DNA from: Candidatus Hydrogenedentota bacterium
GTDB taxonomy: Bacteria; Hydrogenedentota; Hydrogenedentia; Hydrogenedentales; JAEUWI01
Assembly: GCA_034669905.1 (NCBI GenBank)
Contig: JAXMOL010000009.1
Span: 32,001 to 96,000, forward strand
Direction: 5' to 3'
Length of the DNA: 64,000 bases
A program made the position numbers. This document shows positions 6,001 to 48,000 of the stretch, piece by piece; the stretch's first letter is position 1, and the number at the start of each line of letters is the position of its first letter.

Positions 6001-9000
6001 GTGTCCGGGTCGCTCAATACACTGGGCGTGATCCGAATATTTGCCGAGCCGGGTGCGGGCGCGTCTTCATTAATACTGATGGGGCCGTCGCTCGTGTTGG
6101 TCACGGTGACATTGCCACCGGCGCTGGGGGGATCTGTGTTATCTGCGGTGATACTCACGGTGGCGGTAGAAGCGGTCGAATCGGCAACGCCGGATCGGTC
6201 GACGACGACATAGGAAATCGTTGCGTCCGTATCCCGATCCATCGCGGGGGTAAAGCGCAAGTTCAGGTCGCCCGAGGACATCGTCAATGCTGTTCCGGAG
6301 GCGCCCAATACAATGGCACTGCCGTCGCCCTGCGCCACGGTGCCGCCGGTGACGGAGAGGAGCCGCAAGGCCGTCGGGGGGTTGTCTACCGTATCGGGAT
6401 CGCTGAGGGTGACCGGGCTGATCTGGATGTTTGCCGAGCCGGGCGCGGGCGCGTCTTCACTGATACTGATGGCACCGCCGCTCGTGTTGGTCACGGTGAC
6501 ATTGCCACCCGCGCTGGGTGGGTCGGTGTCGTCGGCAGTAATACTTATCGTGATGGTCGACTGACTGGAATCGGTTACGCCGCCGGGATCCACGACCACA
6601 TACTGAATGGTGGCGTCGGTGTCCCGGTCGGGGCTGGGCGTAAAGCGGGCCTCATAGTCGCCGCTCGACAACATGAGCACCGTGCCCGACGCACCGAGCG
6701 TAATGGCACTCCCATCGCCCTGGGCAATGGTGCCGCCCGTGATGGAGATAAGGCGAATGGAATCCGGCGTTTCCCCCATGTCGGCATCCATCAGGGTGGT
6801 GGGCGTAAACTGCACATTGGCGGAAACCGGTGCTGTGGCGTCCTCTGGAATGCTGGTGCCCGCCCCACCGGGTGCGGTGGCGGTAATATCGCCCCCGGGT
6901 GACGGCGCCACAGCGAAGGCCACACCACCAACCGAAAAAATCCCCAAGCCCATGATAACACTGGATATCAGACGCGGCCAATTGCCCATACGTCCACCAG
7001 AAAGTCGAATCATCTCTTACTCCAGCCATACGTTCGAAATCAGGACATTTATCTCGTGCACCCACAGCAACACGATACGAGGGGTCCCATAGAAAACCCA
7101 ATGCCCGCAGCGCTGGCCCCCGTTACAGTCCGGCGGGCCAGTGGATGTGGAAAAGCGCGGTCCAGACACCTGCCCAGAGAAATCCCGGATAAGCGAGTTG
7201 TCCGGGTATGACTTGCGCCTGGCACGTGTCCATCTGCCACCACGATTACATGATACCTTTACAGACAGGCCTTGTCTAGCGTATCCATCATTCGATTTGT
7301 CGAAAAGTGTAAGCCTGCAGGCGGGGGCTAAACCCGCGCGAGGTCATGACTAAGCACGGCTTTCGATTGCGGGGTGTCGACGAAAAGCACAAAATAAACG
7401 TGCTTCTTGACTTGCTTAAGATTTTCAGGTTTAATCATTGGGTCAACTATATATCGTGCAACCACGGGCAGGGGTGTCCGGGCAATGGTTGCGTCTCGAG
7501 GCGATATTCAGATATCAGCAGAATAATTGTTGCTTTCTTCCGGGAGTATTCATGGACATAGAACAATTGTTAGAACCCATCTCGGACGAGATGCCGTGTG
7601 GGGAAGAGGGCTCGCTGTTTGCGCTGGAAGAGATCGTAAAGGAGCAGGGGGCAGGGATTGTGGCGGGGGCCGAGGTGGAAGCGACCGAGCCCAACTGGAG
7701 CCAGCTTTACGAAGAGTCGATTGCGTGCTTTCAAGAGTGTAAACACCTGCGCACGGCCCTCTTTTTGACCCTTGCCAGCATGAATCGCAATGGCGTCATC
7801 GGGTTTCGGGATGGGCTGAGTCTGATTAAAGGGTTGATCGAGCAATATTGGGATACGATGTACCCCGAGTTGGATCCCGACGAAGGCATGGGAGATCCCG
7901 ATGGCTGGATGGAGCGGGAGAATATTCTAAACGACATGAGTGCGCCCCTGGCAACGGTGGGCGATACCATGAAGTTCCTCCAACGGCTTCGTGCCGTGCC
8001 ATTGACGAACTCACGCCAATTGGGCCGCTTTTCATTGAAAGATATCCAGGCGGCGCTTGCGGCCGGAAGCGATGATGAAGAGGGCGATTCCGATAGCAAT
8101 GCACCCAAAATGTCGTTGATACAGGGGGCATTTGAAGATACCGACCTCGATGAATTAGACGCTATGCACACCGCCGTATCCGAGTCCATCGAATTGCTCG
8201 ATGGGATTCGTGAGGCCCTTTCCGAGAAATTGTCCCAGAGTATCCCCCCAACCTTTGAAAATGTGGCCAGCATGTTGAAAGACATGAAGCGTCCGGTTTT
8301 CAAGGAATTGGATCGTCGTGGCTTCTTCGACGACGACGACGACGACTTCGATGCAGATGGGGACGATGACGGGGGAGAAGAGGACGGTAGCGAAGAGGGG
8401 AGTAGCGGCGGTGGCGGCGGTGGAGGCCGCAAAGGCGACATGGCGAGTGCGGGAATTAATTCCCGCGAAGATGTGTTGAAAGCATTCGGCCTCATTTACA
8501 AGTATTACAGTCGAAACGAGCCTTCGAGTCCGGTGCCCCTCATTATGAAACGCGCCGAACGGCTCGTAACGGCCAATTTTTACGACATTATCTCGGATCT
8601 ATCACCCAGCGCTATCAGTGAGATCGAAAGTATCACGGGTACGTCGTCGAGTGACGCCATGGATTCGGGTGACGATGACTTTGATTCGGACGCCAGTAGT
8701 GACGATGATATGTAAGCGCTTCTGTGAGGCACAGAAACGCGGTGAAGAACACACGTAAGAGATGCTGACATCCCGGTGGATGACAGAGAAACAGCGAACA
8801 GAAAGGGCATAGGAGCACCATGGCAACACCTAGTAGTCAGAAATTTATTGCTCGCAATAAGGCTCCCCGGGTTCAGATCGAATATGATGTAGAACTCTAT
8901 GGGGCGGAAAAGAAAATCAACCTGCCATTCGTGATGGGTGTCATGGCGGACCTTTCCGGCAAGCCCGCGGAAGAGCTTCCTCCGGTCAGCGATCGCGACC

Positions 9001-45000: not shown

Positions 45001-48000
45001 TTCGGTGACCTCGGGAAAAATTGGTGCATTGGTATCGCCAAGCTTTCCACCGAAGTGCACGGGCGCGTTGAGCGACGTTTCAGGCTTGGCTCCTGCGTTC
45101 TTATGATAGGCCGCATTCAGGAAGGCCTCGGTGTTTTTTGGGGTTTCTGCAGGGGTGATGGGGCTCTTCCACCGATCGGGCTCGTTGTCTTGCCAGTCCC
45201 AGAGAAGGGTGGCCCCGGCGAGTGCCTCGGGTGCCAGGGTTGTCCCGGCCCCGGCCGACGTTTTTACCGAGACGGTGGCCACAAGAGGTATCCGTGGGCC
45301 TTGTCCCCAAAGCTTCTTGTAGTTATCAAAGTCTGATTGGTCAGCGAATTCGGTGGTTGATTCCTCCACATCCCCTCCGACCATATTTCTAACCGCAAAG
45401 AGGTTGCTCTCCAGCACGACTTCATGCTTCACACCTTCGATGGGCTTGGCGTTGGCCTCGCTCAGGTCATTGAGAAGCTGCTTCTCCAGTCCGATGACCT
45501 CGTCGTCACCGGCGTCACCACCTGCGTCACCACCGGCAGCCGGTTTCCCCAGGATTTTTTCCTTGTATACCTCGTCAATATCCTTCCGTTCGGGGTCGAG
45601 GAGATCATAGGCGCCCCATTCCAGGTCTATTTTTTCAATGAGCACATCGAAGTAGGTCCAGGCCACCGCCTGGGCGGTATCTACCGCCCCGGGCTGCTCG
45701 GGATCCGGATGAAGGGTGATCTTGACCTTATAGGGCGACATCTGGACGTTGATATAGCCGGCCGGAAAATGCTCCGGGTCGGCTTCTTCGTCGAGCTTAC
45801 CATCCCAGGCCAACTCGCCACTGTTCGCATCCGTATCCTTCTTCTCCAGGATATGGGAGAAAATGGGCTCGCCGTTTCCACGGTGATAGACCTCGATGGT
45901 GGCGCCCGATGCCTTGTCCCCATTCTCCAGCGTCCAGGAAATGGTTCCGCTTTCGTGCTTGGGTGCGAAGCACGGACGGGTCGCGTCGTCACTGGCGATG
46001 TCCGCATGGTCCGCCTGATTGTAGCTGGTCGACGTGCCCCCGGCGGTCAGGGTCAGCGATACGACCTTTCCCTGCTGGGATTCTTCCGTATCCTCTCCCG
46101 AGCTGCTTTCGCAGATTTTTGTGCCGCTCTGGGACTGATCGGCACTGCCGCCACCGTCTGACGCCAGGCGGCTCTCGGGGTCCTTGTAGGCCTCAAATTC
46201 AATAGTTGGCGGGTAAGGATACATAGAACTCTCTCTTACTTCGGAAGCGCCGCAACCACATTACCCGGTTGCCGCTTTAACGATTCTGGTTATACCGGAC
46301 CGGGGCGTTGGAGTACCTCATTTTTTGCCCTGCGGGCGTTGGGCATAGAGCCCGCGCCCCTTATTCTCTCGTTTCAACGCGTCGGAATAAAGCTGATTCA
46401 TTTTCTTGTTCGGCTCGTGGCTCCCGCGCTGCAGCGCATTCTGCGTCCAGCGGCACGCGGGGTCGGTGTCAAAGTCCCGGCCAAAGGTGAACATGAGGCC
46501 GAGCCAGCGTTTGATTTGGCCGTCACTTCGAAAGGAATATCGCCGGGCACGCCCGATGCCATAGCGAACGATTTCGAGCAATGCGTCCTCATCCATGGAT
46601 TCGCATTGCTCGGGAAAGGTCGTTCTGACATGACACACCATTTCCAATTCAAATTGTTCCCGTATGGGAGCAGCGATTGCTTCGATTTGTTTACTTCGGA
46701 GTACTAGCACGAGGGCACCATAGGGATTGCGCTACTCTTTTCTAGAAGGTTTAACGGGCTACACGCGGGAGGTCTTTTGCGCCCTGTCGTCGGCACTATC
46801 TACGCCGTGCGCCCAGTTCGCAATCACATCCTTCTCCATCTGGACGGCTGCCTGCCCCGCACGGTAGTGATGCATGATTCCCGGTGTTTCCCCTTCCACA
46901 AAAATACTGCGAATCGGGCCGAAGAACTGGCGGCACTCCTTCGCCGTGCAGGTGGGAAGATAGGTCCGAATCACCCGCGGGTCGTAATACCGAAAGTAAA
47001 ACATGTTGTTCTGCTCGTCATAGACTTTGAAAATCGAGCGGCAATGCTGCCGCACGGCCTGGGGCCAGGAGGTCGTAAGCAGTAAAATGCCCGTGTTGCT
47101 GCCCAGCTTCTCTGTCCAGCGCTGCATATATTCCGGATAGCGATTGGTGCATTTGATTCGCACCAGATAAGGGCCTACCTTCGTCATGTGATACGGCGCC
47201 TTCGTGAACAGCGGACGAAGGGGTTCGCCGAGAATATTTCGGGAACCTACGGAAAGACGGTAGTCCTGGGCGGCATCGACGAGGGCATAAAGGTTGTCAT
47301 CCGGCCGTTTGAACTGCTCAAGATACTGATGCAGATCGTAGGCGTCGGGAAGCGTCGGGTGGGGTGGCGCGGGTACATCCATCATGTTAGCCGTTCTTCC
47401 GGCGGTCGGGGTCAGGGCGCTTCGCCGCATCATCCACCTGGCGGCGATCGGTACAGCCAGAACCGCTTCCTTCCACCAGGGGCGCGCCCGATTCTGCCGC
47501 ACTCTCAAAGGCATCCGCGCAAGAGGGATTGGTGCACTCTGCGGGCTCTTCTTCGGCGGGGGGGAGGGGCGCGATTGTCTGAGGCTGACTCCGCGGTGGT
47601 GTGCGGGATGCCGCCCCATCGTCACCCTCCGCCTGGGCCGGGGGCTCGGGCAGACTGGGCATTTCATCATACATGCGATCCAATTCGCCATCGGTGCGCT
47701 GAAAGTTGGCACCATCAACGTTCATTTTCGACCAGGGCTGTCGCATGCGCACTCCTCCTGCATCGCCTGCCCTATTGGTGGGCGCGCGGTGCGTACAGGG
47801 TTTATTGTTTACTGCTCTGATTGTAATCAGAAAGGGCCGCTGCTGCAAGCCCGGCCCGGGAATTTTCGTCCTTACGGCGCAATTATTTTTCGAATGTTAC
47901 GGCTGTATACCTCCCCCGATTTATCGGTATACTATCTACAGGCCGCTTCGTCGCCCCAACACAAGGGGCACAATGGAACATACAACATGACTTACCTGCG

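Follow-up and report, generated by a model that had tools for sequence, protein, structure and literature searches.

A ClpV-less type VI secretion system in one genus of Hydrogenedentota and a putative double-metzincin cargo tied to its DUF4123 adaptor

We analyzed a 64,000-nucleotide stretch of the genome of a Candidatus Hydrogenedentota bacterium (contig JAXMOL010000009.1, positions 32,001 to 96,000; hereafter the window, numbered from its first nucleotide). We consider it fairly likely that the window encodes a ClpV-less type VI secretion system (T6SS) of subtype i with a spike-loading module, and that a 1689-aa protein is borne on the spike as cargo. The initial annotation had proposed that this protein is a T6SS cargo delivered through a DUF4123 adaptor, and the assignment, drawn from sequence comparison, is now well supported by synteny in other phyla, by payload polymorphism within the genus, and by the presence of a T6SS in every genome found to host the family.

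The core genes lie on the forward strand, and the full set named in the initial annotation is recovered with Pfam and NCBIfam models. These genes encode TssA (7552-8715; ImpA_N, E 1.8e-19 in Pfam; TIGR03363, 165.7 bits, above cut-off in NCBIfam), the small sheath subunit TssB, or VipA (8820-9323; PF05591, E 1.1e-56), the large sheath subunit TssC, or VipB (9326-10798; PF05943, E 5e-132, and PF18945), the Hcp tube (10970-11461; PF05638, E 1e-30), the gp25-like TssE (11605-12174; PF04965, E 5.5e-13), TssF (12167-14047; PF05947, E 2.6e-218), and TssG (14011-15060; PF06996, E 3e-97). The VgrG spike (15143-17269; Phage_GPD, Gp5_trimer_C, and Phage_base_V; TIGR03361, 593 bits) is the sole VgrG of the genome, with one match in the own-genome search. 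TssK (18748-20124; PF05936, E 1.1e-68), TssL, or DotU (20128-20850; PF09850, E 7.7e-16), and TssM (20857-26145; IcmF-related_N, E 3.5e-45) follow, and immediately 3' of tssM lies a gene for a Big_12 Ig-repeat protein (26157-27494, +; PF19078, E 4.7e-34, three stretches). The gene set reads as a canonical (subtype i) T6SS with a single predicted spike-loading module.

ClpV, which had been noted as lacking from the cluster and perhaps encoded elsewhere, is absent from the whole genome, where the best match is ClpB (TIGR03346, 1330 bits, above cut-off); the ClpV model cut-off is exceeded in none of the nine genomes of the genus. TssM has the 1762 aa originally assigned to it, and its C-terminal two-thirds are divergent: TssM models match residues 43-477 only (TIGR03348, 229 bits, under the cut-off of 388), and Pfam gives no match in the final 1181 aa. 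No TssJ family match was recognizable in the system with NCBIfam. A lipoprotein-like ORF between vgrG and tssK (18021-18662, +), with a hydrophobic stretch ending in ...AVSGC (lipobox by eye) and no family match in Pfam or NCBIfam, is a candidate TssJ. Since ClpV, a TssJ family match, and a match to the TssM C-terminus are lacking, we regard T6SS activity as putative.

Within the phylum, VipB was found in 9 of 135 genomes, all of one genus, which agrees with the confinement claimed before, and the system is present in all nine genomes of that genus. TssC identity is 90-94% inside the genus versus 69-73% in the nearest outsiders, and 11 of the 12 organism-named rows at 69-73% belong to the class Phycisphaerae, suggesting that the closest sampled relatives of the system are in Planctomycetota. 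The presence in all nine genomes, together with the drop in TssC identity, fits a gain that dates to the base of the genus or earlier; the "recent" gain originally suggested is not borne out.

The cargo candidate (41155-46224, −) was studied using structure models, a fold search, and sequence alignments. No signal peptide is seen in its sequence, which comprises a conserved N-terminal peptide, a disordered segment (residues 18-48), a beta-sandwich (49-195), an alpha/beta region, a first metzincin domain (~511-985), a helical region (995-1193), and a second metzincin domain (~1275-1689) with an Ig-like insert. The HExxH motifs reported earlier, each with its Cys-rich motif, can be read directly: HEIAH at 928 is followed by CIMNYD and HEISH at 1614 by CVMSYD, with CxxC and LRG after each, so that both sites share the pattern HExxHx5H…H…CxM…CxxC. 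Site 1 (43276-43443, −; H928, E929, H932, H938, H955, C961, M963, C973, C976, R979, G982, and W983) is invariant in 20 of 20 sequences of one alignment (A1) and in 32 of 32 of a further one. Site 2 (41167-41385, −; H1614, E1615, H1618, H1624, H1639, C1664, M1666, C1677, C1680, R1685, and G1686) is likewise invariant in all 20 sequences of A1; in a second alignment of 30 sequences (A2), its H, E, H, H, and H are invariant and its C, M, C, and C at least 90% conserved. Each domain probably also holds a second, structural His-Cys3 zinc site.

The two modules described in the initial annotation are indeed homologous (hhalign 98.2%, E 6e-14, 113 columns), though the duplication is visible by profile comparison only and BLASTP finds no internal repeat. 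The structure models have pLDDT values of 84.9 and 86.6, and the top 19 rows of the fold search (VIA) with the C-terminal model are all metzincins. ADAM-8 matches this model (4dd8_A; Z 9.8, rmsd 3.6, 171 aligned) as well as the N-terminal one (Z 9.4, rmsd 3.6, 167 aligned, residues 511-982), and archaemetzincins match at Z 8.0 (C-terminal model) and 7.8 (2x7m) and at 7.4 and 8.4 (3lmc); these are moderate scores, a best Z of 7-8 being typical even without true kinship according to the tool's own note. Foldseek returned nothing at E ≤ 1e-3 for either model, Pfam metzincin models stayed under cut-off (Peptidase_M10, 17.5 bits versus 24), and a PDB sequence profile search gave nothing meaningful. 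Altogether, the models and the invariant sites support metzincin folds, and thus predicted protease domains, in both halves, in line with the two metalloprotease-like heads first proposed. The cargo family is uncharacterized and present in several other phyla, with relatives in Acidobacteriota, Myxococcota, and Planctomycetota. It is larger than the 19 proteins first counted: a word-index search finds 27 others, of which 10 reach a coverage of 95% or more, and an exhaustive search with residues 831-1689 finds 402 cluster representatives at E ≤ 1e-3.

On the reverse strand, the genes for the DUF4123 adaptor and a small protein, X, precede the 1689-aa gene, on which a DUF4280 gene converges with 45 bp between them. 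This is the layout previously described, with two gene sizes corrected. The adaptor, of the Tap/Tec type (46759-47385, −; PF13503, E 3e-19; Tla1 model, E 2e-9), has ~208 aa, its start being set by comparison with genus orthologues (63-91% identical), and a 319-aa reading of the ORF was rejected as upstream read-through. X (46318-46710, −) is a 130-aa helical protein that belongs to no family, and it is probably a co-chaperone of the adaptor. Abutting the adaptor start is a 119-aa acidic, Pro-rich ORF, Z (47387-47746, −), without Pfam or PHROG match; in another genus genome (G068), a comparable frame also precedes DUF4123. DUF4280 (40720-41109, +; PF14107, E 9.5e-35; IglG model, E 1e-13) is a PAAR-like spike tip. 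The genome holds one DUF4123 and one DUF4280 match and no PAAR_motif, which leaves DUF4280 as the sole PAAR-type gene; given the single VgrG, the 1689-aa gene is therefore flanked by the adaptor and by the spike tip that serve the genome's sole T6SS.

The adaptor and the PAAR-like neighbor had been thought the only links to the T6SS, and three more partners can now be added: X, Y, and a protein with LysM-like and PG_binding_1 modules (LysM-PGB). Y (17284-17829, +) has an acidic, Lys-rich N-terminal half and a ~65-aa beta domain (residues 112-178), belongs to no Pfam family, was recognized by phmmer at related loci, and is probably a spike or loading accessory. LysM-PGB (30198-30866, −; PG_binding_1, E 6e-11), with a beta domain besides its two modules and no signal peptide, is probably a VgrG-effector loading factor or a co-secreted partner. 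Its gene is present once in each of the nine genus genomes, ~21 kb from VipB and on one contig wherever both were seen; in the window it is detached from the effector by 10 kb and keeps with the core cluster.

Within the genus, the site cobW-DUF4280-effector-X-DUF4123 is fixed, and the C-terminal payloads differ. It encodes the 1689-aa double-metzincin protein here (G000), a 947-aa single-metzincin protein in G064, a 1303-aa protein in G065, and a 1493-aa effector without metzincin motif in G062 and G066. X lies upstream of every variant, the last included, and residues ~1-200 are the only part common to all. The adaptor remains 63-91% identical while the payloads differ. G067 and G068 have orthologues of 1690-1691 aa (56-57% identity), located at a different locus; in total, three of the nine genomes have full-length orthologues and two have no match at all.

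Among 22 related loci, vgrG lies within 10 kb of the big gene at 6, DUF4123 at 6, and X at 12 (phmmer), while adjoining ORFs carry the Y domain at 9 (phmmer) and match LysM-PGB at 11 (phmmer E 1e-25 to 1e-57). All five partners have counterparts in the window, and 18 loci have at least one; two of the 22 (L015 and L016) come from the genus of the window and are not independent, nor are kin among the compared genomes. Four loci (L019, L020, L030, and L031), across families of Acidobacteriota, share the colinear order vgrG-DUF4123-X-Y-LysM/PGB-big gene, and the big protein of L026 carries a Y-like domain fused at its C-terminus (residues 2042-2103). Of the four loci without partner, three sit at the end of a contig or on a short one, and one has full flanks (L033, Nannocystis). 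DUF4280 adjoins the big gene at none of the 22, this adjacency being seen only inside the genus. VipB is above cut-off in 21 of 21 family-bearing host genomes versus 1 of 14 control genomes.

By analogy to Tap/Tec and LysM work, the DUF4123 adaptor, aided by X, would hold the cargo in the cytoplasm by its conserved N-terminal part and pass it to the single VgrG trimer. LysM-PGB and Y, the latter encoded directly after vgrG, may bridge or stabilize the VgrG-cargo contact, and the DUF4280 cone would cap the spike. Sheath contraction would then expel the spike with its cargo; sheath recycling would need ClpB or no unfoldase. In the recipient, motifs and fold suggest that the two zinc metzincin domains, each with a catalytic HExxHx5H site and a Met-turn-like CxM, cut protein substrates. 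Because its constant partner has two modules that bind peptidoglycan, the cargo would most likely act in the envelope or periplasm of a second bacterium; this is the weakest step.

The T6SS cargo could also be something other than an antibacterial toxin. With proteases directed at eukaryotic cells (grazers or hosts), or serving to feed on extracellular or prey protein, it would need no immunity protein, and none was found: 45 bp beyond the 3' end of the gene comes the convergent DUF4280 gene, a signal-peptide protein encoded nearby (47987-48709) shows 89% conservation beside a different effector in G065, and no gene downstream of the big gene is conserved in related loci. The lack of an immunity gene was already noted in the initial annotation, and no conserved one is seen at these loci; the toxin role and the contact-dependent antagonism proposed at that stage are therefore best treated as hypothetical. 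The hosts are free-living Acidobacteriota, Myxococcota, Planctomycetota, and members of this phylum, and the best fold matches are ADAM/adamalysin-type enzymes, cutters of extracellular proteins. Against this, the LysM-like and PG_binding_1 modules point to the bacterial wall, an argument much of which is removed by the loading role described for LysM proteins in the consulted part of PMC10673891, and polymorphic payloads at a single site are what interbacterial arms races typically produce. On balance, we judge a non-antibacterial cargo unlikely, though deserving of serious weight.

The absence of an immunity gene would equally suit a structural or helper part, such as a spike decoration that clears envelope or peptidoglycan-linked proteins for spike passage, in a system without several usual parts; the tight linkage with vgrG and with machine-conserved accessory genes (LysM-PGB in nine of nine genus genomes) could be read in the same way. 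A machine part would be constant, however, whereas the payloads at the site are unrelated at their C-termini and full-length orthologues are missing from most genomes of a genus that has kept its T6SS throughout, which makes this reading highly improbable. The least probable reading is that the protein is not exported by the T6SS but is a large multidomain protease that stays in the cytoplasm or leaves the cell by another route, with coincidental neighbors. Secretion of the cargo is inferred, vgrG is near at few loci, and some loci have no partner; chance adjacency, however, sits poorly with partners at most loci, the recurring six-gene order, the Y-domain fusion, VipB in all host genomes, and a big gene set between the sole adaptor and the sole PAAR-like gene of the genome.

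The preferred reading, a spike-borne metzincin cargo, can be compared with known systems. As in adamalysin/ADAM metzincins (M12B) and archaemetzincins (M54), which are also its fold matches, the third His is at position +10 relative to the first, with a conserved Met behind it; the CxM ... CxxC layout presumably recalls the archaemetzincin cysteine pattern, with the first of four cysteines apparently replaced by an invariant His (H955/H1639). In contrast to those families, sequence-level membership is not seen by Pfam or by PDB profile search, Phe or Tyr takes the place of the Gly in the metzincin consensus HExxHxxGxxH, and there are two catalytic domains per chain, each with large inserted domains. 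Pseudomonas aeruginosa VgrG2b has a single C-terminal metallopeptidase domain fused to VgrG; like it, the window protein is a predicted zinc metallopeptidase with proposed delivery by the T6SS spike, but the 1689-aa cargo is encoded apart from VgrG, has two metzincin domains, and matches no Pfam peptidase above cut-off. In the TseT/TecT/co-TecT/PAAR4 system of P. aeruginosa, a DUF4123 chaperone, a small co-chaperone, and a PAAR-type tip surround one effector, as DUF4123, the co-chaperone candidate X, and the tip do here; the tip is DUF4280 instead of PAAR, the effector family differs, and X is likened to co-TecT by role only. The ClpV-less T6SS of Francisella uses ClpB. A DUF4280 tip (IglG in Francisella) and the lack of ClpV are shared with that system, as far as excerpts of PMC5014421 and PMC5349215 describe it, whereas all other core genes here match canonical subtype-i families rather than those of Francisella.

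DUF4123 proteins tether effectors to VgrG, and in the portion consulted, a survey of nine proteobacterial genera names five effector neighborhoods: Rhs, Tle, alpha/beta hydrolase, MIX, and MATE (PMC11582642). Like the Tap/Tec cargo effectors it describes, the window protein is large, lacks a signal peptide, and has an adaptor gene just upstream, with vgrG upstream in relatives and a conserved adaptor beside varying payloads. Unlike them, it belongs to a metzincin family, found among none of those five; its adaptor is accompanied by X, Y, and LysM-PGB; and its hosts are not members of Pseudomonadota. According to part of PMC10673891, effector binding to VgrG requires stand-alone LysM proteins; LysM is linked there chiefly to toxins of the lysozyme-like, NlpD, and NlpC/P60 kinds, and PG_binding_1 is reported as limited to some gamma-proteobacteria. 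LysM-PGB resembles these stand-alone proteins as a small protein without signal peptide encoded directly before the effector at 11 of 22 loci, and differs in its metzincin partner, its other phyla, and its detachment in this genome. Judged from gene neighborhoods, the tie of this cargo family to vgrG, DUF4123, X, Y, and LysM + PG_binding_1 genes across phyla appears to be new.

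The window carries a colinear set of T6SS genes on the plus strand, and Pfam and NCBIfam scans bear out the core named in the initial annotation. The set opens with TssA (7552-8715, +; Pfam and NCBIfam), followed by TssB, TssC, Hcp, TssE, TssF and TssG, and continues through VgrG (15143-17269, +; Pfam and NCBIfam), two ORFs without a family (Y at 17284-17829 and a second at 18021-18662, both +), TssK, TssL and the 1762-aa TssM (20857-26145, +). The TssB/TssC sheath, the Hcp tube and the VgrG spike all exceed their Pfam cut-offs, and the baseplate proteins TssE, TssF, TssG and TssK, as well as TssA, are present by Pfam or NCBIfam. 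For the membrane complex, TssL is found by Pfam; the model match of TssM is confined to residues 43-477 and lies under the NCBIfam cut-off, and its last 1181 residues (22600-26145, +) have no Pfam match. This T6SS lineage may therefore have an unusual membrane complex on its periplasmic side. A Big_12 repeat protein directly follows TssM. No gene in the window has a Pfam or NCBIfam match to TssJ. The ORF at 18021-18662 (+), between vgrG/Y and tssK, has a lipobox-like N-terminus (...AVSGC), and these two features, position and lipobox, by themselves make it a candidate for a divergent TssJ.

A genus-wide scan bears on ClpV (TssH), which the initial annotation supposed might lie elsewhere in the genome. 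None of the nine genus genomes, one of which is a single contig, has a match over the TIGR03345 cut-off, and the top ClpV-type match in the window's own genome (95.7% complete) is ClpB by its own equivalog model. Set against the canonical (subtype i) gene set, the system is off-canon in that it is without ClpV, has a divergent TssM and lacks a TssJ family match. Just upstream of tssA, on the opposite strand, a 2337-aa ORF (3-7013, -) runs off the window; with Big_9, cadherin-like and DUF11 repeats, it looks like a surface protein of the adhesin type.

The candidate cargo, a 1689-aa protein (41155-46224, -), is encoded in a minus-strand operon in the order Z, DUF4123, X and big gene. Z (47387-47746, -) is short, acidic and rich in Pro, and its stop lies directly against the start of DUF4123; it has no family match, and a similar reading frame occurs in another genome of the genus (G068). 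The DUF4123 adaptor (46759-47385, -) lies two genes upstream of the big gene on the same strand, separated from it by X (46318-46710, -), a 130-aa ORF. A longer, 319-aa ORF was rejected as the adaptor gene because its genus orthologues align only from an internal Met-Met, at 63-91% identity. The DUF4280 (PAAR-like) gene is convergent and ends 45 bp from the big-gene stop codon. About 24 kb separate the end of vgrG, inside the core cluster, from the near end of the effector gene. Genome-wide counts give exactly one VgrG, one DUF4123 and one DUF4280 gene, the last being the spike tip, and no PAAR_motif match. Since the genome has a single DUF4123, a single DUF4280 and no PAAR_motif, the big gene is flanked by the sole adaptor and the sole spike tip of the sole T6SS.

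A CobW/COG0523-type GTPase gene (39495-40616, -) adjoins DUF4280, and the pairing is kept in G064 and G065, two further genomes of the genus, beside different zinc-protease payloads. Members of this GTPase family are known metallochaperones, and one might speculate that the protein is linked to zinc loading. Between the core and the effector module (27985-39474), the genes look unrelated to the T6SS and include an amidohydrolase-like 728-aa protein, a DAHL and PAS sensor, a di-haem cytochrome c peroxidase, a 1347-aa protein with 11 PKD repeats and a PDZ protein. On the far side, 48894-63341 is a polysaccharide synthesis cluster with a beta-helix protein, a Polysacc_synt flippase, an epimerase, a sulfatase, Wzy_C, WecG, a GT2 enzyme, a sugar transferase and a Wzz/tyrosine-kinase-like protein.

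The 1689-aa protein has no signal peptide, starts with a conserved MxxYPxxI pattern and belongs to no curated family of Pfam or NCBIfam; its closest curated peptidase match is Peptidase_M10 (E 0.0039, 17.5 bits against a cut-off of 24). In an alignment of 20 full-length homologues at 27-73% identity (A1), two sets of residues are invariant in all 20 sequences: H928, E929, H932, H938, H955, C961, M963, N964, Y965, C973, C976, R979, G982 and W983 at the first site, and H1614, E1615, H1618, H1624, H1639, D1651, C1664, M1666, Y1668, C1677, C1680, R1685 and G1686 at the second. The zinc motifs read HEIAHALFLPH and HEISHALYLQH. The metzincin consensus is HExxHxxGxxH/D, and the HExxHx5H spacing is metzincin-like; the three His and the Glu of that clan are kept here, whereas the Gly position is taken by Phe or Tyr. 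Downstream of each zinc motif, A1 shows an invariant Met (M963 and M1666) in the setting CxM(N/S)Y, and this CxM could plausibly be the Met-turn. The extra His and three Cys of each module suggest a second, structural zinc site. Archaemetzincins (M54) have a four-cysteine structural zinc site around the Met-turn, and the layout here recalls theirs, each module having instead three Cys (CxM ... CxxC) and one His, all of them invariant; a Pfam scan of the window returned no Peptidase_M54 match at E<=0.01. The catalytic hypothesis is clear-cut: two invariant predicted zinc sites, both open to mutation.

The two modules are related to each other. A BLASTP self-comparison of the protein found no internal repeat; profiles of the two cores cut from A1 match with 98.2% probability (E 6e-14, 113 columns, 32% identity), and the cores are therefore homologous and the product of an old duplication. 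A comparison of two further alignments (A2 and A3) gave a trivial self-match only, as both contain full-length rows. The helical region between the cores (residues 990-1215) had been considered PG_binding-like, and a relaxed Pfam scan gave this no support, being empty for this protein and likewise for ten proteins sharing the module.

Searches with A1 as a profile found no relative among PDB sequences, the two matches (E 0.033 and 0.19) being at chance level. AlphaFold models built from homologue alignments reached a pLDDT of 84.9 and a pTM of 0.70 for residues 1-1193, and of 86.6 and 0.84 for residues 1194-1689. By Foldseek, neither model has a PDB match at E<=1e-3, and what was listed is Ig-like or integrin-like only. 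With exhaustive VIA-align searches, the best 19 matches of the C-terminal model are all metzincins (ADAM-8: Z 9.8, rmsd 3.6, 171 aligned; archaemetzincin 2x7m: Z 8.0), as are the best 10 of the N-terminal model, over residues ~511-985 (ADAM-8: Z 9.4, rmsd 3.6, 167 aligned). The archaemetzincins 2x7m, 3zvs and 3lmc score Z 7.1-8.4 over both models, tied with other metzincins. The Z scores are moderate; because the hit lists are uniform and the motifs agree, we consider a metzincin fold credible for both predicted catalytic domains. The C-terminal model also has an Ig-like insert at ~193-285 of its own numbering, and the N-terminal model a beta-sandwich at residues 49-195. This sandwich matches both the T6SS effector BtaeB-NTD (9jdh_A) and its VgrG cargo complex (9jg8_C) at Z 7.6; as generic domains of the Ig, FN3 and MG kinds reach equal or better scores, the match was given no weight.

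The effector site varies within the genus. Besides the window's genome, full-length orthologues occur in G067 and G068 only (56-57% identical), and two genus genomes have no match to the big protein. At the site cobW-DUF4280-[effector]-X-DUF4123, G064 encodes a 947-aa protein that shares residues 3-545 and has one metzincin core, and G065 a 1303-aa protein followed by a 535-aa ORF. In G062 and G066 a 1493-aa protein has only residues 5-197 in common and is without the metzincin motif. As far as the sequences tell, an N-terminal part that is kept while the C-termini are exchanged is what polymorphic effectors show. X and the well-conserved DUF4123 go with every payload variant of the genus. Because X is kept beside the protease-less variant, a part in loading is likelier for it than one in immunity. 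In a complex prediction, cargo residues 1-560 plus X scored 0.45 with DUF4123 as the partner, against 0.37 in one control, a difference that speaks neither for binding nor against it.

No immunity gene was found at the locus, in line with the initial annotation. There is no co-directional gene downstream of the big gene, where the 45-bp gap leads into the convergent DUF4280. X was dismissed as a candidate, as across the genus variants it tracks the N-terminal loading region and not the toxin part. A 240-aa protein without a family, encoded divergently from the effector operon (47987-48709, +), carries a clear signal peptide; it too was dismissed, being 89% identical in G065 beside a different effector and showing no co-variation. 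If this absence holds, it raises the question of how such proteases stay harmless to kin. It also speaks for another role of the cargo, one that is not antibacterial, which we regard as unlikely, if by no means negligible.

To place the operon in a wider context, we compared 22 loci with related big genes from a scan of one genome per species, using Pfam on 67 adjacent ORFs and phmmer with the window's own proteins. Their hosts are the window organism's order (two loci, same genus), Acidobacteriota, Polyangiales, Myxococcota with Nannocystis, Planctomycetota with Phycisphaerae, Sumerlaeota and a Nitrospinia MAG. A recurrent gene set lies upstream of the big gene: vgrG (within 10 kb in 6 of the 22 loci), DUF4123 (6/22), X (12/22), Y (9/22), whose window counterpart directly follows vgrG, and a ~215-aa protein without a signal peptide that combines a LysM-like domain with PG_binding_1 (11/22; window counterpart 30198-30866, E down to 1e-57). 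All five partners occur together in four loci (L019, L020, L030 and L031), arranged as vgrG-DUF4123-X-Y-LysM/PGB-big gene, and 18 of the 22 loci have at least one. Among the four loci without a partner, the gene of L017 starts 1 kb from a contig end, and L018 and L032 are on contigs of 6.3 and 3.4 kb; the flanks of L033, the fourth, are complete. DUF4123 sits two genes upstream of the effector on the same strand in 6 of the 22 loci and in all six genus loci examined. VipB is over its cut-off in all 21 genomes that carry a big-gene locus. The LysM/PG_binding_1 gene occurs in one copy in each of the nine genus genomes, ~21 kb from VipB where both share a contig, and therefore belongs with the T6SS machine. 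This comparison and the structural models lend independent support to the initial reading of the protein (g01376) as a T6SS cargo with two metalloprotease-like heads; this support does not extend to its description there as a toxin or to contact-dependent antagonism.

In L026 the big protein carries the Y beta-domain as a C-terminal fusion. Y genes with two copies of this ~65-aa domain (L029 8131-9132, L035 7846-8802, L022 8269-8994 and L023 1036-1743) occur in Myxococcota, Planctomycetota and Bryobacterales, and one-copy genes in the window and Pyrinomonadaceae. In L022, from a Planctomycetota MAG, the last ~1800 residues of a 3957-aa ORF (9883-21756, +) are a family member; in L026, on another contig of that MAG, two family members (8370-14690 and 15385-18429, +) flank a LysM/PG_binding_1 gene.

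A word-index search with the big protein returned 27 others, of which 10 span 95% or more of its length, and one with residues 1-520 gave nine matches and no further architectures. In an exhaustive search with residues 831-1689, the number of cluster representatives was 402 at E<=1e-3, 158 at <=1e-10 and 46 at <=1e-30. The family spans Acidobacteriota, Myxococcota, Planctomycetota and this phylum. Single modules also occur apart, in many shorter proteins. Nearly all of 36 family-related proteins scanned are without a Pfam family, a few having PG_binding_1, CHAP or PKD, and protein-atlas look-ups gave only unnamed or PG_binding_1 clusters. A literature search found no paper on this effector family and none relevant that joins metzincins and type VI secretion; a public sequencing-run search matched no RNA data set and gave 13 DNA entries, three with at least half of the words.

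Within Hydrogenedentota, VipB is present in 9 of 135 genomes, namely the window's genome and all eight of its relatives in the genus, and in none of six genomes from other genera of the same family, as expected from the initial annotation, which confined the system to one genus. TssC identity is 90-94% within the genus and then falls to 69-73%; of the 12 organism-named matches in that range, 11 are Planctomycetota of the class Phycisphaerae, and one is labelled Leptolyngbya sp. PLA3. The G+C content is 0.54-0.59 over the T6SS cluster against 0.60-0.61 in the first 6 kb of the window, a mild difference. The parsimonious account is that the system was gained by transfer no later than the base of the genus, and the suggestion that the gain was recent was not borne out. 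No paper on a T6SS in Hydrogenedentota was found, judged by title or abstract. That this phylum has a T6SS is by itself a matter of routine annotation, of value chiefly as a clear instance of acquisition at the level of a genus. Almost all that is known of T6SS effectors comes from Pseudomonadota and Bacteroidota, and X and Y, both without a family in a conserved loading set, could extend the known rules of spike-cargo selection.

In its most extended form, which we think distinctly improbable as a whole, the proposal would be a pan-phylum, unnamed family of giant T6SS cargoes with one or two metzincins, each with a second His-Cys3 zinc site, and a fixed five-protein loading set (VgrG, DUF4123, X, Y and LysM/PG_binding_1) without an immunity protein. 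A co-injected LysM/PG_binding_1 partner might then pin the protease to the recipient's peptidoglycan, where it would cut wall-anchored envelope proteins, and self-protection would come from compartment or activation and not from an antidote.

In a published vgrG locus, co-immunoprecipitation is reported to show that the downstream effector binds VgrG only with the help of a stand-alone LysM protein, and PG_binding_1 is listed among such domains (PMC10673891). DUF4123 proteins tether effectors to the VgrG C-terminus, and a survey of them described five effector neighbourhoods in nine proteobacterial genera (PMC11582642). None of those neighbourhoods is a metzincin one, in contrast to the predicted metzincin here. 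Altogether, judged from alignments and models, the big protein and its partners represent a putative new family of effectors, together with a new set of loading genes, in a system of familiar type.
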